Assembly: GCA_046758905.1 (NCBI GenBank)
Contig: JBHIBC010000005.1
Span: 4,656 to 68,655, forward strand
Origin: Acidobacteriota bacterium
Lineage (GTDB): Bacteria; Acidobacteriota; Polarisedimenticolia; Gp22-AA2
Direction of reading: 5' to 3'
DNA length: 64,000 nt
Every line of letters begins with the position of its first letter. Position 1 is the first letter of the stretch. Shown here piece after piece: positions 49,031 to 60,712 of the stretch. Position numbers and translations under genes: made by a program. The notes beneath the pieces are model-generated. The model was not told where the DNA came from. It ran no database searches and worked only from the letters and a program-made list of their open reading frames with translations.

Positions 49031-50737
49031 GTGGTGATTCGAGCCGTGCTGAATCGGGCCGTGGCACGTGATCGCGCGGCGCGGCTTCTCGTCGCGACCG
49101 CGCTTTTGTGCCAGCTCCCCGGCTGCGCCCGGGACGCCGAGGACGGTCCCGGCCCCGATCCGCCCGGCCGCACCGGAGGGAGCCTCCGCCTGGACGCGCC
49201 CCAGCTCGACCAGCTGAGGAGCCTTGACCCCGTGCGGGTCACCGACGTCAACAGCGGCTCGGTCGCGGCGGCGATCTACGAGGGCCTGCTGGGCTATTCG
49301 CCGGACTCCCCGGGCCACCTGGTCCCGCTGCTCGCCTCGTGGTGGGAGACGTCGGAGGAGGGCAGGGTCTGGACCTTCGGCCTGCGCGACGGGGTCCGCT
49401 TTCACGACGACCCCTGCTTCGAGGGCGGCCGGGGACGGCCCGTGACGGTCGAGGACGTGCGCGACTCGATCGTCCGGAGCCTGAGAGAGGGCGAGCGGGC
49501 CGCCCCGCTGTCGCTGCGCGACCTCATCGAGGGCGCCGGCGATCTCGGGGGCGGTCCGTCGGGCGAGGTCCCGGGCATAGAGATCGTGGACGAGACGACG
49601 ATCCGCTTCAGGATCGTGCGGGCCAGCGACGCCTTTCCGCACGCCCTCGCGACCTCGGCCGGCTGGGTGGTCCCGTGGGAGGCCCTGCGGCGGTACGGGG
49701 CCGGGTTCGGCCACCATCCGGTCGGGACCGGGCCGTTCCGCCTGGCCGGCTGGAACACCGAGACGATGGTGCTGGTGCGCAACGACCACTACTGGAGGAC
49801 GGACGCGGACGGAAGACGCCTCCCCTATCTCGACAGCATCGTCATGCGGCGCGGCGAGTTCTCCGGCCGCCGGCGCACGGTGCTGTCCGCCCTGCTGGAC
49901 GGGAGCCTCCACGCCGTGTACTTCACGGGGGAGCTCGACTGGGCGGAGTTCGGCCGCCTCTCCGAGTTCATGGGGGACAGGGGGGTCGGGACCGTCCGCA
50001 CGCCGAAGTTAAATACCATCTTCTACGGTTGGAACATGGCCCGGGACAACGTCTGGACGCGCCACCCCGAGCTGCGTCGCGCTGTGTTCCACGCGGTGAA
50101 CCGGCCGGCGCCGACCGACCTGATGGAGCCCGCCTCGGGCCTCCTCCCTCCGGGGCTCACCGAGTGCGCCGCGACCGAGCCGGCCCGGCGGGATCCGCGC
50201 CGCGCCCGCGAGCTGCTCCGCGAGGCCGGGTTTCCCGGGGGCCGGGGCCTGCCGCCGCTGCGGATCGGAGCCGTGGGCAGGACCGAGTACCTGCTGCGCA
50301 ACGTCCTCGAGCCCCTGGAGGAGGTCGGGATCGAGACCGATGTCCGGGTCACTCCCTGGGACCTTCACTGGGAGGCCCTCGAGCGCGGGGAGTACGAGTT
50401 CTTCCGGGACGGGTGGATCGCCGACTACCCCGACCCGGGGAACTTCTACCAGCTCTTCTACTCCGGCTCGGCCATGAACCACACCCGCTACTCCGACCCG
50501 ACCTACGACCGGCTGTTCGAGCGGTTCCAGGCGCTGCCCGCCGACAGCCCCGAGAGGCGCCGGATCTGCGCCCGGCTGGAGGCCATCCTGCGCCGGGACT
50601 GCCCGGCGGTCTTCCTCTATCACGAGCGATCGGTCTATCTGGTGCGGCGCGAGGTCCGAAACGTCGACGCCTTCGTCAATCCGTTCGAGCGCAAGTTCTA
50701 CGAGCTGGTGTGGCTGGATCGAGGGGCGCGGCCGTGA
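49031..50737 (+). CDS. Periplasmic solute-binding protein, family 5 (OppA/DppA/NikA-like), lipoprotein; no ABC permease or ATPase genes adjacent
   Basis: Lipobox LLCQLPGCA; SBP_bac_5 pattern (...RLPYLDSIV..., ...NHTRYSDPTYDRL..., ...AVFLYHERSVYLVRREVRN...). Start codon uncertain (GTG 49031/49034; the ORF opens at 48908). Stop overlaps the HK start (GTGA). Confidence 0.75.
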   Translation: MVIRAVLNRAVARDRAARLLVATALLCQLPGCARDAEDGPGPDPPGRTGGSLRLDAPQLDQLRSLDPVRVTDVNSGSVAAAIYEGLLGYSPDSPGHLVPLLASWWETSEEGRVWTFGLRDGVRFHDDPCFEGGRGRPVTVEDVRDSIVRSLREGERAAPLSLRDLIEGAGDLGGGPSGEVPGIEIVDETTIRFRIVRASDAFPHALATSAGWVVPWEALRRYGAGFGHHPVGTGPFRLAGWNTETMVLVRNDHYWRTDADGRRLPYLDSIVMRRGEFSGRRRTVLSALLDGSLHAVYFTGELDWAEFGRLSEFMGDRGVGTVRTPKLNTIFYGWNMARDNVWTRHPELRRAVFHAVNRPAPTDLMEPASGLLPPGLTECAATEPARRDPRRARELLREAGFPGGRGLPPLRIGAVGRTEYLLRNVLEPLEEVGIETDVRVTPWDLHWEALERGEYEFFRDGWIADYPDPGNFYQLFYSGSAMNHTRYSDPTYDRLFERFQALPADSPERRRICARLEAILRRDCPAVFLYHERSVYLVRREVRNVDAFVNPFERKFYELVWLDRGARP

Positions 50738-52578
50738 AGCGGCGGATGCAGCGCAACCTGGTGCTGCTGTTTCTCGGCTCCTCGGCGGTGCCCCTGGCCG
50801 TGGTGGCGGGGATCGGGTACTACGTCTCGACGCGCTCCATCGTGTCGATGGTGAGGCGGCGGGCCGCCTTCTCCTGTAAGGAGATCGACCGGCGCTTCAC
50901 GCGGCGGATGCGCAGGGTCGAGGACCAGTTCCAGCTGGTCGCCGGCGGCGGGGGCACCCTGCCGGGGGAGTGGGAGGCGCGGGCACGGCTGCGGGACGGC
51001 CGGGCGGAGTTCTACGTCGAGGACCTCGTCCTGGAGGCGGGCCTCGACCGGAGGTTCACGCGCCTCGTGATCCTGGACGCCGACGGCGCCCCGCGCTACA
51101 AGATCGACTATCGCCGCGTGCCGGTGCGGGGACCCGGCGGCCCGCGCTACTTCCTGCAGACCGCCCGCTTCCGGCCGGAGGACGCACGGGGCTACGAGGA
51201 GGCGGCGCGGCTCGGGCCCTCCGAGACCCGCGTGCTGCTGCCGGGCCCGGACGCCGGGACCATGGTGATCCGCCTGGCCACCCCCCTGTTCTCGGGGCGG
51301 CGGCGCCTCGGCACGCTGCTGGCCGACTTCGACGCGGCGGGCATCCTGGAGTCGGTGATCGGGGGCATGAGCCTCGGCAAGGACGCGTTCCACTTCCTGG
51401 TCGATTCGAGAAGCGGCGTGCTCCTGTCCCACCCGGACTACTCGCGCAGGAACCAGCTCCTGGCGGTGGCCATGCCCTCCCTCGGCCCGGACTTCCTCGG
51501 CGGGCGGGCGGACGGATGGGCGAGATTCCGCGACGCCGGCGGGCAGGAGTGGATCGTCTCCCGGCGCAGGCTGGCGGGCACGCCCTGGGTGGTCGCGGTG
51601 GCGGGCCCTTTGGGCTCCTTCCTCGCGCCGATCCAAAGGGTCGGGCGGCTGCTCCTGTTGCTGGTCCTCTTCGTCCTGACCGGGGCCTCCCTGGTGATCC
51701 TCCTGGCGACCAGGCGGTTCCGGCGCTCGCTGGCCTCGCTGACCGCGGCGGCGCAGTCGTTCTCATCGGGCGACCTGAGCCGGCGGGTGGAGGTGCGCTC
51801 GGACGACGAGATGGGGGCGCTAGGGCGCACTCTCAACAGCATGGCGCGCGACCTCCGGCGGGAGATCGAGCGGAGGGAGCAGAGCGCCCGCATCGAGTCG
51901 TTCAACCGGCTGGCGGCGGCGGTCGCCCACGACCTCAAGAGCTCCCTCTTCAGCCTGTCGCTCCTGCTGGACAATCTCGACCGGCACGCGGGCGAGCGGC
52001 AGTTCATGAAGGACTCCGCGCTGACCATCCGCAAGGCGCTCGAGAAGCTGAAGAAGACCAGCGAGAGGTTGGCGTGCCCCCCGTCGGGCGCCGCGGTGCG
52101 CCTCGAGCCGCTGGAGCTGTCGTCGCTTCTTCGGGCCGCCCTCGACGAGTCGGGCGCCGGGCGCCGCCCCGGGCTGCGGGTCGAGGCGGACCTGCCGGAG
52201 GGGGTGAGCGCCCTCGGCGAGCGGGAGGAGACCGGGAGGCTGTTCCTGAACCTGGTGCAGAACGCCGTGGAGGCGATGCCCGGCGGGGGCACCCTGCGCC
52301 TCTCGTGCAGGCGAGTCGAGGATCGGGCCGGCGGCGCGGCCTGGGCGGAGGTCACGGTGGAGGATTCGGGCGCCGGGATGTCGTCCGACTTCCTGCGCCG
52401 GAGGCTGTACCGCCCGTTCGCCAGCACCAAGGCCGGGGGGATCGGGCTCGGCCTGTATACCTGCCGGGAGATCGTCGAGCGCCACGGGGGCCGGATCGAG
52501 GTGCGGAGCGAGCCGGCCCGGGGGAGCGTGTTCCACGTCCGGCTGCCCGCCCCGGCCGCGCGGGCGACCCACGCATGA
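50734..52578 (+). CDS. Sensor histidine kinase with periplasmic Cache-like domain, HAMP, HisKA, HATPase_c
   Basis: TM1 LVLLFLGSSAVPLAVVAGIGYYV, about 270-aa periplasmic domain, TM2 LLLLLVLFVLTGASLVILLA, HAMP, H-box AAVAHDLKSSL, N/G boxes (NLVQNAVEAM, DSGAGM, GGIGLGL). Alternative start ATG 50746. Confidence 0.8.
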   Translation: MKRRMQRNLVLLFLGSSAVPLAVVAGIGYYVSTRSIVSMVRRRAAFSCKEIDRRFTRRMRRVEDQFQLVAGGGGTLPGEWEARARLRDGRAEFYVEDLVLEAGLDRRFTRLVILDADGAPRYKIDYRRVPVRGPGGPRYFLQTARFRPEDARGYEEAARLGPSETRVLLPGPDAGTMVIRLATPLFSGRRRLGTLLADFDAAGILESVIGGMSLGKDAFHFLVDSRSGVLLSHPDYSRRNQLLAVAMPSLGPDFLGGRADGWARFRDAGGQEWIVSRRRLAGTPWVVAVAGPLGSFLAPIQRVGRLLLLLVLFVLTGASLVILLATRRFRRSLASLTAAAQSFSSGDLSRRVEVRSDDEMGALGRTLNSMARDLRREIERREQSARIESFNRLAAAVAHDLKSSLFSLSLLLDNLDRHAGERQFMKDSALTIRKALEKLKKTSERLACPPSGAAVRLEPLELSSLLRAALDESGAGRRPGLRVEADLPEGVSALGEREETGRLFLNLVQNAVEAMPGGGTLRLSCRRVEDRAGGAAWAEVTVEDSGAGMSSDFLRRRLYRPFASTKAGGIGLGLYTCREIVERHGGRIEVRSEPARGSVFHVRLPAPAARATHA

Positions 52579-52582
52579 CGGG

Positions 52583-52708
52583 GGCGCGGACGGCGGCGGT
52601 GCGGGCGACGGCGGCGCGGATGACGGCGGCACGGACGGCGGCGGTGCGGACGGCGGCGGTGCGGGCGACGGCGGCGCGGATGACGACGGCGCGGGCGACG
52701 GCGGCGCG
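52583..52708. repeat. Imperfect 15-nt tandem repeat (GACGGCGGCGGTGCG-like, about 8 copies; two 45-nt super-units) in the HK to RR intergenic region
   Basis: Direct inspection: gacggcggcggtgcgggc/gacggcggcgcggatgac/ggcggcacg... repeats twice. Ends immediately at the bEBP ATG (52712), which has no obvious SD. Confidence 0.6.
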
Positions 52709-52711
52709 GAC

Positions 52712-54103
<1,392 letters not shown>

Positions 54104-54128
54104 GCGGCCCGCGCCCGCCGGTCTTCCT

Positions 54129-54300
54129 GATCGCCGCGCTTGCCCGGCGCGCGACCGTCCCGATCGCCGCGCTTGCCCGCCCGCTGTCCTCCCGGCCGTC
54201 GCGCTTGCTCGCCCGCGCTCCTCGCGGCCGCCGGCTCTCGCGCCCGCGATCGTCCCGATCGGCACGGCTCCGGCGCCGCTGATCGTCCCGAACGGGACGG
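54129..54300. promoter_or_regulatory. Cluster of direct repeats, candidate enhancer (UAS) sites upstream of the sigma54 promoter
   Basis: GATCGCCGCGCTTGCCCG twice (about 54129 and 54162), variant GTCGCGCTTGCTCGCCCG (about 54198), and GATCGTCCCGATCGGCACGG / GATCGTCCCGAACGGGACGG (about 54249 and 54281). 110-280 bp upstream of the -24/-12 element. Confidence 0.35.
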
Positions 54301-54408
54301 CCGGTCCCGCGCCGCGCCTGCCCGGATCGCCGTCGCCGCGCGGCGGGAGCGGCCCAACCCTCCACGGGGCGATAAGTTGCGGCCGCGGCGGCCGGGCCGC
54401 CCGCGCGC

Positions 54409-54425
54409 CTGGCACGCCGCGTGCT
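54409..54425 (+). promoter_or_regulatory. Sigma-54 (RpoN) -24/-12 promoter: CTGGCACGccgcgTGCT
   Basis: Matches the YTGGCACGr-N3-TTGCW consensus at 16/17 positions, with exact GG to GC spacing (GG 54411-12, GC 54423-24). 46 nt upstream of the receiver gene and directly downstream of the bEBP gene. Confidence 0.6.
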
Positions 54426-54481
54426 GGAAGGACCAGAGGACGGCCCGCCTCGGCGACGAGGTCGAGCGAGCGGGAGGGACC

Positions 54482-54853
54482 GTGGGCGGGAAGACCAGAG
54501 TCCTGATCGTCGATGACGACCCGGAGGTCCTGAGCCAGCTCCGCTGGGCGCTGCGGGAGGAGTTCGACCTGCTGCTGGCGGCCAGCCCCCCGGAGGTCGA
54601 GGCGCTGCTGCTCGAGGCGAGCCCGCCGGCGGCCGCGCTGGTCGACCTGCACCTGCCGCCCGAGACCTCGTCCATCGACGGGGGTATCGCCGTCATCCGC
54701 GCGCTGAGGAGGGCCTCCGCCGCCACCCGGATCGTCGCCATCTCCGCCTACCCGAGCGAGGACTCGGACCGGCGTTCCCGCTCCGCGGGGGCGTCGATGC
54801 TGCTGAGCAAGCCGGTGCGGCGCGCGCGGCTTCTGGAGCTGCTGGGCGGATGA
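54482..54853 (+). CDS. Response regulator, receiver (CheY-like) domain only
   Basis: GTG start with GGGAGGG just upstream. VLIVDDD...D(LLLAA)...LVDLHLPP phospho-acceptor Asp, ...VIALSAYPS.. and K in LLSKP: a complete REC fold with no output domain. Confidence 0.7.
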   Translation: MGGKTRVLIVDDDPEVLSQLRWALREEFDLLLAASPPEVEALLLEASPPAAALVDLHLPPETSSIDGGIAVIRALRRASAATRIVAISAYPSEDSDRRSRSAGASMLLSKPVRRARLLELLGG

Positions 54854-54932
54854 GCCGCTTTATCACGTCACGAACGCCGCAATCGCCGTTGGGCGGGTGA
54901 GGTTTCCGATGGTCGCCAATCAGAGGAGCGAG

Positions 54933-57900
54933 ATGAAGGTCACACGACGCGTCGCTCGGGCGCGTGCCGCCTGGGCGATCCCGCTGACGGCCCTGCTCCT
55001 GTTCGCCCTCGGGGGGCGCGCGCCGGTCGAGAGGGACGAGCACGGGCGCATCCGGAACAGGCCTGTTCGCAGGGTGGAGCTGCAGGGGATCAGGGTCACG
55101 CTCGAGCAGCTGCAGCGCATCGACGCGCAGCTCGGGAAGCCCGAGCGCAGGGTCATTCCGTTCATGGAGCGGCCGGCACCAACGGAGCTTTCCGAGCCGG
55201 CGTCCTCCTCTCCGGCGCCGTCGGAGGGGAGAAGCCTCGAGCGCGAGCCGAGTCCGCGGGAGCCCGGCGCCGGCCCGCCCCAGGCACAGGGGGCGGAGCA
55301 GGGAGGATATGAATCGGCCGCCTCCCCGGCGGCGGCGCCTCTGGCCAACGATTTCCCGGGCATGAAGGACGATCTGACGGTGATCCCGCCCGACACCCAC
55401 GGGGCCGCCGGTCCCGACTTCCTCGTGAGCGTCCTCAACCGCGGCTTCGCCGTCTTCGACAAGGCGACCGGGACGATCGTCTTCGGGCCGATCTCCCTGC
55501 AGGCGTTCTGGGCCCCCCTGGGCACGGCGCCCGGGGATCCGGCGAGCGATCCATTCGATCCGAGGGTGATCTACGACCAGTACGCCGGCCGGTTCATCGT
55601 CACCTCGGCCGGCGGACGCTGCGGTCCCGCCTCCTGGATCCTGGTGGCGATCTCGATCTCGAGCGACCCGAACGCGGGGTTCACCCTGTACGCCGTCCGG
55701 GCGGACGCGACGACCCCGGGGCAGTGGGCGGACTATCCTGCGGTCGGCGTCAATCCCGACAACATCTACATCACCGCCAACATGTTCGACAACGCCGGCA
55801 GCTGCCCCCGGGGCGCCGCCTCTCACCCCGCCAAGTTCTGGGCGATCGAGAAGGCCGCGCTTGTGGGCGGAACGCTCGCGTTCAGCGAGTTCATCGATGT
55901 CGTCGGCGGCGGGACGTGGCAGCCCACCCACGCCTTCGGCCCGACCCCGGTCAACTACATCATCAACGAGGGATGGTCGGTGAGCCCCGGCACGAGGCAG
56001 CTGCGCATCCAGGAGTTCTCGGGCCCGGTCGGATCGCCGATCCTCACGGATCTCGGCTTCATCCAGGTCGCCCGCTACGGCCTGGACCTGATCGAGGACG
56101 CCCCGCAGCTCAACTGCTCGGCGAGGATCGAGACGAACGACTTTCGGCTGCTCGACGCCGTCCTCAGGAACAACAAGATCTGGGCGACGCACCACGTGGA
56201 CGACCCGGTCGCGGACGGCGTCGGGAGGACGGAGGTCGCCTGGTACGAGATCGATCCGACCCAGGCGATGCCGTCTCCCGGCCCCTTCGCCGGCCCGATC
56301 CAGCAGGGACGGGTGAGCGGCGGCCCCCCCGCGGGCCTCAGGTACTACTACCCGTCCATCGCGGTGAACGCCGCCGAGTGCGTGGCGCTGGGGTTCTCGG
56401 GGTCGGACGGCTTCAACCCCGCGAGCGGCTTCTACACCTCGCGGGAGCCGAACGATCCGCCCGGAACGATGGGCCCGGTCTCGCCCCTCAAGGGCGGGGT
56501 GGATCCCTACTTCAAGGAGTTCCTCCCGCCGCTGTGCGCGGTGAGCGTCCAGTTCGAGGCGGAGCCCCCGCCCCCTCCCCCCCCGCCGAACCAGTTCGTG
56601 GTCGGGTCGACCATCTTCGACCCGGGCGCGATCATGACCGTCACTCCCTTCTTCTTCAGCGACGGCACGCAGTTCAGCGGCGGGTACGCCGAGATCTCCC
56701 TGGCGAACCAGGCGCTGGGGACGGGCCAGGAGCTGGCCATCAACAACGTCAACATCGACTTCAGCTTCAGCTGCACCGAGGGCGCGACGATCCCCAACCT
56801 GACGCTGAAGTACGCCGAGCTCGGCGGCAACATCAATATGGAGATCAACGGCGACTTCAGGAACTTCCAGGACTTCATCAACGTCAGCGGGCTGGTCATC
56901 GGCGGCGTCCGGGTCACCGCCACGGACTTCGGCCCGCCCGGCAACGGTCCCGGGATCCTCTCCCTCCAGGGGACGATCTTCTCCTTCAGCCTCGGCGGTC
57001 AGGAGCTGTGGATCGACGACGTCAGGAGCTCGCTCGCGGCGTTCACGAGGAACCGCTGGGGCGATTACAGCGCCACGGTGATCGACCCGAGCGACGGGAG
57101 CTTCTGGACCATCCAGGAGTACGCCGAGCAGGAGCTGGCGCCGGGGTGCAACGCCCCCGACACCGGCGTGTGGGGGACCTGGTGGGGCAACTTCGCCTGC
57201 GCGGCGATCCCCTGCAGCGTCGACGCCGACTGCGACGACGGGGTCTTCTGCAACGGCGCCGAGGTCTGCCAGAACGGCCTCTTCTGCGGGCCCGGCACAC
57301 GGCCTTCCTGCGACGACGGGAACCCCTGCACGATCGACAGCTGCGACACCGGCTCCGACTCGTGCCTGAACGCTCCCGCCCCCGACACGGAGAGAGCCGC
57401 GGGTGCCGACGGCAACTGCGACACGGCGGACGACAACCTGGATCTCTTCGGTCCCGACGGCCTCTGCGGCACGAGCGACGACGGAGCGGGGGACGGCACC
57501 TGCGACGCCGTCGACAACTGCCCGGGCAGGTACAACCCCGGCCAGGAGGACGCCGACCGGGACGGGCTCGGGGACGTCTGCGACGCCGATCCGTGTCCGG
57601 CCGGGCTCGTCTACGTGACCGAGTCGGGCGGCGCCAGTGGAGAGCTGTCGGTGGTCGACCTCCTCACGGGGACCGTCTCGGTCATAACGAGCGGGCTCTC
57701 CGGCCCGAGCGGGGTCTCCCTCAACACGGCCGGGACCAAGGCCTACGTTTCGGAGTCGGGCGGCCAGCAGCTGCTGGAGATCGATCTCGCGACCGGCGTG
57801 CCCAGCTTCATTTACGGGCAGTGGCCCCAGGAGGGGGTGGCCGTCTGCGACCTCGGGACCCACGGCTACGTGACCGAGGTCGTGATGGGCAACGCCGGCG

Positions 57901-59825
57901 CCCTCACGATGGTGAACCTCGGCAGCGGCTCGATCTTCCCCTTCAACGTCGGCGCCCCGCCGACGGGCGTCGACCTCAACGGAGCCAACACCGCCGCCTA
58001 TGTCCTGGAGCCCGGCCCCGGGACGCTCGAGGAGGTGATACTCGGCGGGGTGTGCGGGGTCCCCGCACTCATCAACACCGTGACCGGCGCGCTGAGCAGC
58101 CCCGAGAAGATCGCGGTCAACGCCGCGGGCACCCTCGCGTACGTCACCGAGCTCGGGACCGGGAGCCTCCTGGAGATCGATCTCGCCACGGGGATCCGGA
58201 CGGCCATCGCCACGAGCCTGATCAACCCGACGGGTGTCGATCTCAACCCGGCCGAGACCACGGCCTACGTGACCGAGCAAGGGAGCGGGCGACTGCTGTC
58301 GGTCGACCTCGCCACCGGCAACGTGACGACCGAGGCGTTCGGCCTGTCCGTCGCCACGGACGTGGCGTTTCAGCCCGGGGGCAACACGATCAGCATGCCC
58401 GACGGCGTCACTGGCTTCTCCGGCTCGAGCATCGTGGTCCCGGTGAGTCTCACGGACATCACCGGCCAGGGGGTCTTCTCCGTCGATCTGACGGTCCGCT
58501 ACAACAGGGCCGTGCTTCAGATCCCGACCACGCCCGCGCCCAACGGCGGCGTGGCGCTCGGGAGCCTGGCGAGCGGCTGCACGCTGACGACCAATCTGAA
58601 CACCCCCGGCGAGGCGGTCATCTCGGTGTTCTGCAGCTCCGCCATGAGCGGCTCCGGCTCCCTGGTGGAGATCACCTTCAACGTCATCGGCGCCGCCGGG
58701 ACCGGAAGCCCGCTCGACATCGTCACCGCCGCGCTCAACGAGGGGACCCCGGGCGTCTGCGTGGACGACGGTTCCGTCTCGATCCCCGAGTTCATCGCCG
58801 GGGCGATCCGCTACTACCGGGACCAGGCGAGCGCCACGGAGCCCGGGACGCAGCCGGTCGACGCCGCGGCGGTCGATCTCACCGGGTTCATCAATACGAC
58901 GACGAGCACCGACTGCAGCGGCGCCTACACCTTCACCCCCGTGACCCTGAACCAGGACTACAGAGTCACTCCGGGCAAGCTGAACGACTTCGACGCGGGG
59001 ATCGACCCGTTCGACGCCTCGCTGAACGCCCAGCACGTGGTCGGCCTCATCACTCTCACGCCGAATCAGCAGCTGGCGGCCGACGTGACGGGCAACGGGA
59101 CACTCACCTCCTTCGACTCCGCCATGATCGCGCGCTTCACGGTCGGGTCGATCACGCGGTTCCCCGTGGCGACGACCAACGGCAGCGACTGGACCTTCGT
59201 CCCGGTCCCGCAGACGGAGCCGAACCAGACGGTGGTCAACCCCGTGCCGTCGGCGGGCGTTCAGGGGAGCATCTCCTACACGCCGCTCGCCCGCTCGGCC
59301 GCCTCGCAGGATCTCCTGGGGGTCCTCTACGGGGATGTCTCGGGCAACTGGCAATCGAGCTGCACCTCGGGCGCGGCGAGCCTGCCCTTTGCCGCCTCAC
59401 TCGAGGCGCCCAAAGGTGTGAGGCAGCACGGCCCCGCCGGCCGTCTCGTCCTGCCCGCGGTCGCGGCGCGGCCGGGCGAGCTGATCCAGGTGCCGATCAG
59501 GGCCCTGGGGACCGGGGATGCGGTCTCCTTCTACCTGGATCTGCGTTTCGACCCCTCCGTCCTGAGCGTCGAGCGGATCGAGGTGGGGGACGCGGCCCCC
59601 GGCTTCAGCCTCGCGTCGAATCGGGACGACCCCGGGCGGGCGCGGATGGCCCTGTTCCATACGCTTCCCTTGCGGGCCGGGGGCGAGGTCGCGGTCGTCA
59701 CCTTCCTGGTGGTCGGCAAGCCGGGTGACGCGACGGCGCTCACGCTGCCGGCCTTCACGGTCAACGAGGGGCGGATCAGGGCCGTGGTGAAAGAGGGGCT
59801 GGTCCGAGTCGTCCCCGGACGCTGA
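54933..59825 (+). CDS. Giant secreted multi-domain surface protein (1630 aa): N-terminal unknown domain, poly-Pro linker, Cys-rich (Myxococcus-type) repeats, thrombospondin-type-3-like Ca-binding repeats, YVTN/NHL-like beta-propeller, cohesin-like and dockerin-like modules, C-terminal cohesin-like domain
   Basis: ATG 54933 with AGAGGAG RBS; signal peptide. PPPPPPPP linker (about aa 545). CDDGNPCTIDSCD-type repeats. DxDxDG Ca-binding loops (GADGNCDTADDNLD, DADRDGLGDVCDADPC). Five repeats of ..AYVTE.G.G.LL.IDLATG.. (propeller blades). Cohesin-like beta-sandwich segments (VPVSLTDITGQGVFSVDLTVRYNRAVLQ; LIQVPIRALGTGDAVSFYLDLRFDPSVLS). Dockerin-like segment DVTGNGTLTSFDSAMIARFTVG. Confidence 0.8.
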   Translation: MKVTRRVARARAAWAIPLTALLLFALGGRAPVERDEHGRIRNRPVRRVELQGIRVTLEQLQRIDAQLGKPERRVIPFMERPAPTELSEPASSSPAPSEGRSLEREPSPREPGAGPPQAQGAEQGGYESAASPAAAPLANDFPGMKDDLTVIPPDTHGAAGPDFLVSVLNRGFAVFDKATGTIVFGPISLQAFWAPLGTAPGDPASDPFDPRVIYDQYAGRFIVTSAGGRCGPASWILVAISISSDPNAGFTLYAVRADATTPGQWADYPAVGVNPDNIYITANMFDNAGSCPRGAASHPAKFWAIEKAALVGGTLAFSEFIDVVGGGTWQPTHAFGPTPVNYIINEGWSVSPGTRQLRIQEFSGPVGSPILTDLGFIQVARYGLDLIEDAPQLNCSARIETNDFRLLDAVLRNNKIWATHHVDDPVADGVGRTEVAWYEIDPTQAMPSPGPFAGPIQQGRVSGGPPAGLRYYYPSIAVNAAECVALGFSGSDGFNPASGFYTSREPNDPPGTMGPVSPLKGGVDPYFKEFLPPLCAVSVQFEAEPPPPPPPPNQFVVGSTIFDPGAIMTVTPFFFSDGTQFSGGYAEISLANQALGTGQELAINNVNIDFSFSCTEGATIPNLTLKYAELGGNINMEINGDFRNFQDFINVSGLVIGGVRVTATDFGPPGNGPGILSLQGTIFSFSLGGQELWIDDVRSSLAAFTRNRWGDYSATVIDPSDGSFWTIQEYAEQELAPGCNAPDTGVWGTWWGNFACAAIPCSVDADCDDGVFCNGAEVCQNGLFCGPGTRPSCDDGNPCTIDSCDTGSDSCLNAPAPDTERAAGADGNCDTADDNLDLFGPDGLCGTSDDGAGDGTCDAVDNCPGRYNPGQEDADRDGLGDVCDADPCPAGLVYVTESGGASGELSVVDLLTGTVSVITSGLSGPSGVSLNTAGTKAYVSESGGQQLLEIDLATGVPSFIYGQWPQEGVAVCDLGTHGYVTEVVMGNAGALTMVNLGSGSIFPFNVGAPPTGVDLNGANTAAYVLEPGPGTLEEVILGGVCGVPALINTVTGALSSPEKIAVNAAGTLAYVTELGTGSLLEIDLATGIRTAIATSLINPTGVDLNPAETTAYVTEQGSGRLLSVDLATGNVTTEAFGLSVATDVAFQPGGNTISMPDGVTGFSGSSIVVPVSLTDITGQGVFSVDLTVRYNRAVLQIPTTPAPNGGVALGSLASGCTLTTNLNTPGEAVISVFCSSAMSGSGSLVEITFNVIGAAGTGSPLDIVTAALNEGTPGVCVDDGSVSIPEFIAGAIRYYRDQASATEPGTQPVDAAAVDLTGFINTTTSTDCSGAYTFTPVTLNQDYRVTPGKLNDFDAGIDPFDASLNAQHVVGLITLTPNQQLAADVTGNGTLTSFDSAMIARFTVGSITRFPVATTNGSDWTFVPVPQTEPNQTVVNPVPSAGVQGSISYTPLARSAASQDLLGVLYGDVSGNWQSSCTSGAASLPFAASLEAPKGVRQHGPAGRLVLPAVAARPGELIQVPIRALGTGDAVSFYLDLRFDPSVLSVERIEVGDAAPGFSLASNRDDPGRARMALFHTLPLRAGGEVAVVTFLVVGKPGDATALTLPAFTVNEGRIRAVVKEGLVRVVPGR

Positions 59826-59842
59826 CCGCCGGAGGTCGTGGG

Positions 59843-60712
59843 ATGGGACGCGTGGAGCGGCCTGTGAGGCACGACCCGGGGCGGCGCGACCCGGGACGGT
59901 GCGACCCGGGGCGGCGCGACCCGGGACGGCGCGACCGTTGCCAATCTCGGTTCGGGCCACGGCGGGCCGCACTCGGGATGATCCTGCTCCTGCTGGCGGG
60001 CTCAGGCTCGTCGGGCCTCGCCGCGACCCTGAGCCTGCCAGCCGGCGCGGGCGCACCACCGGGCGCCTCCACGGTGGTCCCTCTCCAGGTCGACGACGCG
60101 GCGGGGATGCTGGGGACCGACATCCTCATCGCCTACGACCCCGCGGTGGCGATCGCCACCGGCGTCTCCCCGACCCCCCTCTCGGCGAGCCAGACGCTGA
60201 CCGTGAACCTGAACGGTCCCGGCGTGATCGTCATCTCGCTGTTCGGCGCGTACCCCCTGGACGGGAGCGGGGCCCTGCTGGATCTCTCCTTCACCTCGGT
60301 CGGACCCCTGAACAGCCGGACGGTCCTCGACCTCGCGTCGGCCGACATCAACGAGGGGGGGATCCCGGTGATGCTGCTCGACGGGCAATACTGCGTACAG
60401 GGGCCGACCGAGGAGGTTCGGGGCCTCGAGGCCGGCCTCGCCGCGCCCGGTTCCACGGTGGCGATACTGAGCTGGGCCCCCGATCCCTTGGCGGCCTCCT
60501 TCAACGTCTATCGTGGCGAGAGCCCCGACCTGAGCGATCTCGCCTGCTTCCTTCCCGGCGTCACGGGCACCTCGACCGCGGACGACGGAGCCCTCCCGCC
60601 GGGCGGGCTGTTCGTCTACATGGTGACTGCGGCCAACTGCCGAGGCGAATCGACGCTGGGGTTCGACTCGACCGGCTCGGAGCGGATGAACTCAGCGCCC
60701 TGCAGCCCTTAG
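59843..60712 (+). CDS. Cohesin-domain-containing secreted protein with C-terminal FN3-like module
   Basis: ATG 59843 has GGAGGT 7 nt upstream (alternative ATG 59978, before the hydrophobic MILLLLAGSGSSGLAA). Cohesin-like type segment VVPLQVDDAAGMLGTDILIAYDPAVAIATGVSP...LLDLSFTSVG. The C-terminus ...ILSWAPDPLAASFNVYRGES... resembles an Ig/FN3-like domain. Confidence 0.65.
   Translation: MGRVERPVRHDPGRRDPGRCDPGRRDPGRRDRCQSRFGPRRAALGMILLLLAGSGSSGLAATLSLPAGAGAPPGASTVVPLQVDDAAGMLGTDILIAYDPAVAIATGVSPTPLSASQTLTVNLNGPGVIVISLFGAYPLDGSGALLDLSFTSVGPLNSRTVLDLASADINEGGIPVMLLDGQYCVQGPTEEVRGLEAGLAAPGSTVAILSWAPDPLAASFNVYRGESPDLSDLACFLPGVTGTSTADDGALPPGGLFVYMVTAANCRGESTLGFDSTGSERMNSAPCSP
59872..59937. repeat. 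15-nt tandem repeat CGACCCGGGRCGGYG x about 4.4 (encodes (DPGRR)n if the upstream start is used)
   Basis: Direct inspection of 59872..59937: perfect 15-nt periodicity with R/Y alternation. Confidence 0.6.

Follow-up and report, generated by a model that had tools for sequence, protein, structure and literature searches.

A locus in an uncultured soil-type Acidobacteriota bacterium (a high-GC diderm MAG) encodes a three-component signalling cassette that probably governs an operon of secreted modular proteins under sigma-54 control; from the sequence, we assign this reading a probability of roughly 60%. The co-directional order is a family-5 solute-binding protein (SBP), a sensor histidine kinase (HK), an NtrC-type activator (bEBP), a -24/-12 promoter, a receiver-only response regulator (RR), a protein of 1630 aa (from here: the giant) and a second secreted cohesin protein of 289 aa (COH2). 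Most likely, the sigma-54 promoter switches on the small regulator together with the two secreted cohesin/dockerin proteins. The window, i.e. the whole stretch of 64 kb that was analysed, has a GC content of 72%. Every gene that an earlier note had listed is present in the same direction, and the coding frames of all of them fit third-position GC. The locus is real and lineage-restricted, and both its parts and its wiring are of already known kinds, so that it is only moderately unusual. Its features are compiled in Table 1.

Table 1. Features of the locus, with positions counted from the first nucleotide of the window
Feature	Position	Strand	Evidence
Orphan family-5 SBP, 568 aa	49031..50737	+	SBP_bac_5, E 6.6e-59
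Sensor HK	50734..52578 (alternative ATG start 50746)	+	dCache_1, HAMP, HATPase_c
HK-bEBP spacer, 134 nt	52577..52711	+	15-nt tandem repeat GACGGCGGCGCGGAC, 9 copies (TRF and sequence)
NtrC-family sigma-54 bEBP	52712..54103	+	Response_reg, Sigma54_activat, HTH_8 (Pfam)
Array of ~33-nt repeats with putative bEBP binding sites	54132..54315	+	TRF and repeat finder
Best palindromes CGTCCCGATCGGCACG and CGTCCCGAACGGGACG	54251-54266 and 54284-54299	+	33 bp apart
Sigma-54 (-24/-12) promoter TGGCACGCCGCGTGCT	54410..54425	+	Consensus match
Receiver-only RR, 123 aa, GTG start	54482..54853	+	Response_reg
Giant, secreted 1630-aa modular protein	54933..59825	+	Translation; Cohesin E 1e-15
7-bladed beta-propeller 'head' of the giant, aa 130-530 plus 705-756	55320..57200	+	
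Cys-rich/thrombospondin-type-3-like region (aa 757-889), then second propeller-like repeat region (aa 890-1150)	57201..58382	+	
Cohesin module 1, aa 1152-1284	58386..58784	+	Pfam Cohesin 58.6 bits, E 1e-15
Dockerin-like module, aa ~1350-1413	58980..59171	+	Dockerin_1 21.5 bits, just under 22.9 cutoff
Cohesin module 2, aa 1495-1625, C-terminal end of the giant	59415..59807	+	Pfam Cohesin 24.1 bits, equal to cutoff
COH2, secreted, 289 aa	59843..60712	+	Pfam Cohesin 21.2 bits, under cutoff

Orthologs of the HK, a 614-aa protein of an Acidobacteriota MAG in NCBI (P0001), are rare. Only six, with 53-57% identity, were found in 5.8 billion clusters, and the collection scans yielded only one genome and one further metagenome contig. 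The order SBP-HK-bEBP is kept in three of the four other loci carrying an HK ortholog (L001, L004 and L006), and L003 has a kinase ortholog without an intact SBP or bEBP. In these three loci the SBP orthologs (56-62% identical) lie directly 5′ of the HK ortholog and the bEBP orthologs are 65-71% identical. Overall, the cassette components are 55-71% identical among them, a similar divergence that is consistent with inheritance of the cassette as a unit. The HK and bEBP genes overlap in L001 and L004, unlike here, where the spacer between them consists entirely of the GACGGCGGCGCGGAC repeat.

The earlier note had tied the cassette to its cohesin/dockerin cargo, and this link was not conserved. 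In L001 the cassette adjoins a different secreted cargo protein, which ends in a COH2-type FN3-like domain, and neither the cassette nor the promoter motif occurs in the four loci L027, L028, L030 and L036, which encode homologs of that part of the giant called its head. Besides the SBP-HK-bEBP order, the pair formed by the C-terminal part of the giant and COH2 recurs. These two are neighbours in two metagenome contigs, L032 and L033, with COH2 orthologs of 58% identity directly 3′ of the giant orthologs. The cassette appears to behave as a portable regulatory unit, and in the closest relative (L001) it would drive a different secreted protein.

The giant (P0044), which NCBI lists as a cohesin domain-containing protein, carries a signal peptide at its start and a cohesin-dockerin-cohesin (Coh-Doc-Coh) cassette at its end. 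A 175-aa stretch specific to the lineage (aa 531-704, nt 56523-57044) is inserted into the propeller of its N-terminal head. The region that follows the head gave weak Dicty_CTDC and TSP_3 matches, an SGL match of 28 bits (cutoff 26.3) and PQQ_2 and DUF6923 matches under cutoff; its aa 890-1150 carry YVTE...DLATG repeats. The cohesin modules are genuine according to both Pfam and Foldseek: the AF2 model of cohesin 1 (pLDDT 91.8) matched solved type I cohesins with target-normalised TM-scores (TMt) of 0.66-0.79 and E values of about 1e-11 to 1e-9, and cohesin 2 was modelled as a beta-sandwich with high confidence. The dockerin-like segment also stood as a homolog of solved dockerins, at a position other than aa 1290-1320, where it had been placed before; a small beta-sandwich (aa 1288-1349) precedes it. 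In phmmer searches of the PDB it matched 8x39_A (E 1.6e-8), the ScaB dockerin of A. cellulolyticus 4uyq_B (2.2e-7) and C. thermocellum 1ohz_B (3e-3). Its helices are predicted at the expected place, and D235, N239 and D246 (construct numbering) are invariant or nearly so in 18 homologs. The second calcium loop, DVTGNGTLTSFD, is near-canonical, and the first is two residues shorter and degenerate. Judged by sequence, the module is a true dockerin homolog with only one canonical calcium loop.

In COH2, an Arg-rich signal peptide is followed by a cohesin at aa 62-185 (nt 60026-60397) and, C-terminally, by an FN3-like domain with conserved Cys residues (aa ~200-289). It is 35% identical to cohesin 1 of the giant (E 6e-16) and 28% to cohesin 2. 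Members of the COH2 family have ordinary signal peptides, and the C-terminal domain matches FN3-repeat proteins, of which P0144 was confirmed as fn3. Neither the giant nor COH2 showed a glycoside hydrolase or CBM, nor an SLH, sortase, PEP-CTERM or lipobox anchor. With no CAZyme, CBM or cell-surface anchor found, the former description of a 'cellulosome-like surface assembly' is unsupported.

From these modules we infer cohesin-dockerin pairing between the giant and COH2. Alternatively, the modules might not form a binding pair at all and might have a structural role as spacers, recognise other ligands or pack against one another in a single chain, with no giant-COH2 assembly. Most non-cellulosomal cohesins have no known function, which counts for this alternative, as do the sub-cutoff Pfam score of the dockerin with its one canonical calcium loop and a giant ortholog in L031 that has no COH2 neighbour. 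Moreover, the whole Coh-Doc-Coh unit is kept in P0102-P0106 (48-54% identity, 99-100% coverage) as if rigid, and the pTM of its model, 0.79, may reflect modules packing against each other within one chain and not partner binding. Nevertheless, the alignment of the dockerin to functional dockerins of solved structure covers both repeats, and two further contigs have a COH2 ortholog after the giant ortholog. We consider the absence of pairing possible but doubtful, and retain the paired arrangement as the preferred reading.

On the sensory side, the SBP starts with a signal sequence that contains LPGC, a lipobox-like motif. Its best solved relative is the SBP of a peptide ABC transporter, 8upi_A (E 1e-38), and DppA, OppA and GsiB match as well; by family, the ligand is most likely a peptide or another small oligomer. 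The HK comprises a TM helix, a periplasmic dCache_1 domain, a second TM helix, HAMP, a PrsK-like DHp and HATPase_c. Its GTG start at 50734 overlaps the SBP stop codon as GTGA, as had been claimed and is seen in the junction sequence; by sequence, the two genes are translationally coupled. The claim that the SBP has no ABC permease or ATPase nearby also held, as tblastn found no Opp-type permease or ATPase homologs anywhere in the 64 kb window. SBP genes commonly adjoin the genes of SBP-activated kinases, this adjacency being the usual signature (PMC11113362), and the family-5-type SBP CBP controls ChiS (PMC12704726). We propose that the SBP is the ligand-sensing partner of the kinase, and infer direct SBP-HK contact.

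The SBP could instead be an ordinary transport or dual-role protein feeding an ABC importer encoded elsewhere in the genome, with the dCache domain as the primary ligand sensor; adjacency to the two-component system would then mean co-regulation or a secondary signalling role, like that of CBP/ChiS in Vibrio. All of its relatives with solved structures are ABC-transporter SBPs of the peptide, Dpp, Opp and GsiB types, and the inspected portion of the genome amounts to 64 kb. Also, dCache domains themselves bind ligands (Pfam PF02743) and can do so alone, so that the SBP may be dispensable for sensing. Against this speak the lack of permease and ATPase genes in the window and among the L001 genes, as well as the finding that in four loci the SBP and HK genes are adjacent, the stop codon of the one overlapping the start codon of the other or nearly doing so. 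A transport or dual role is unlikely, and the SBP as sensory partner remains our preferred interpretation.

The bEBP combines a receiver with visible DLRLPP motif, an AAA+ domain with intact GAFTGA motif and a Fis-type HTH. The near-consensus sigma-54 promoter reported just 3′ of its gene could be substantiated. TGGCACGCCGCGTGCT is the only consensus match with at most one mismatch in the window, with chance expectations of ~0.25 matches for the whole window and ~7e-4 for the 378-nt spacer on one strand. The predicted transcript would start near 54436, ~46 nt 5′ of the RR start codon. Within the spacer, two conserved palindromes precede the promoter, lying ~120 bp upstream of the -24 element. 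L001 keeps the promoter as TGGCACGCACCCTGCT at the same position, the palindromes as TGTCCCAATCGGGACA/TGTGCCGTTCGGGGCA aligned to CGTCCCGATCGGCACG/CGTCCCGAACGGGACG with the same 33-bp spacing, and a 60%-identical RR ortholog as first gene after the promoter. As L001 is the only other locus long enough, conservation of promoter and RR rests on two loci. Taken by itself, the palindrome motif occurs no more rarely than expected by chance in the 72% GC window, so that position and conservation are what support these sites.

The RR has a PrsR-type receiver with the acidic pocket DDD, the phospho-acceptor Asp in VDLHLPP and the conserved K-P. Among NCBIfam models, the receiver part of TIGR02915 fits it best, and it has an N-terminal motif and the DLxLPP motif in common with the bEBP receiver. 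The gaps downstream measure 79 nt (RR-giant) and 17 nt (giant-COH2), and no terminator-like sites were found between RR, giant and COH2. That the promoter serves only the RR as an autoregulatory loop, with the giant and COH2 transcribed independently and placed there incidentally, might be argued from the 79-nt gap, the different cargo in L001 and the giant-head homologs lacking cassette and sigma-54 motif, but is very improbable given that a large secreted modular protein follows the RR in both loci long enough, that the L001 cargo and COH2 share a Cys-containing FN3-like domain at the C terminus, that the RR frame runs into the cargo gene in L001, and that the RR-giant gap has no terminator-like or sigma-70-like site.

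We picture a regulated operon as follows. The ligand-loaded SBP would dock on, or modulate, the periplasmic dCache domain, upon which the kinase would phosphorylate the bEBP; the activator would oligomerise on the palindromes and open the sigma-54 promoter. The RR, as first product and a paralog of the activator's PrsR-type receiver, could compete for phosphoryl groups and act as negative feedback or as a timing device. Outside the cell, the only dockerin would bind one of the three cohesins and so bring the giant and COH2 together, giving an extracellular complex or matrix component.

The earlier view that this is not a described system is unsupported or overstated when known systems are compared. 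Non-cellulosomal cohesin-dockerin pairs are already known (PDB 2xdh; PMC12484212). The top Foldseek matches were type I cohesins and the CipA Coh-X-Doc fragment, with 2xdh also matched. Like the giant, cellulosomal adaptor scaffoldins, CipA CohI9-X-DocII (4fl4, 3kcp) and non-cellulosomal proteins such as Archaeoglobus fulgidus 2xdh combine cohesin(s) and a dockerin in one polypeptide; the giant's dockerin is homologous to that of ScaB, and a further cohesin is encoded by the neighbouring gene. The locus differs from these in that neither a glycoside hydrolase nor a CBM, SLH or sortase anchor was found, that one calcium loop of the dockerin is degenerate, that an uncharacterised beta-propeller forms the catalytic or binding 'head' and that the host is a high-GC diderm Acidobacteriota MAG.

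In TorT/TorS, LuxP/LuxQ, CBP/ChiS and AgtS/AruS-type systems the SBP gene adjoins the kinase gene, as here (PMC11113362, PMC12704726), and in both cases the SBP presumably docks on the periplasmic sensor domain. CBP is, like our SBP, of the peptide/oligosaccharide-binding type, but belongs to an ABC transporter operon. The TorS, LuxQ, ChiS and AruS-type kinases differ in sensor fold or are of the hybrid type, and they have different outputs.

PrsK/PrsR (TIGR02916/TIGR02915) are the closest curated models for the kinase core, the activator and the receiver of the small RR, although both proteins score under the family cutoffs (bEBP against TIGR02915, the PEP-CTERM-box regulator PrsR and its best NCBIfam model, 472.3 vs 502.6 bits; C-terminal core of the HK against TIGR02916, 165.8 vs 300 bits). 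There, too, long intergenic regions in front of genes encoding secreted or cell-envelope proteins contain sigma-54 promoters that are the targets of an NtrC-type activator (PMC1569441). In our system a dCache sensor replaces the N-terminal domain of PrsK, the target proteins have no PEP-CTERM signal, neither PrsT nor an exosortase occurs among the examined neighbours, and there is an SBP partner, which PrsK/PrsR lack.

The wiring as a whole matches AioX/AioS/AioR of arsenite oxidisers, in which a transporter-less periplasmic binding protein, a membrane HK and a sigma-54 NtrC-type activator are encoded in the same order (PMC7533571, PMC5908839). Next to these genes lies the RpoN-dependent promoter of the target operon, which in the 'type I' arrangement points the same way. 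The match is one of wiring; AioX belongs to a different binding-protein family than the SBP_bac_5 protein found here. Unlike in the arsenite system, the kinase sensor is a dCache domain, a receiver-only regulator heads the target operon and the targets are secreted modular proteins instead of an oxidase.

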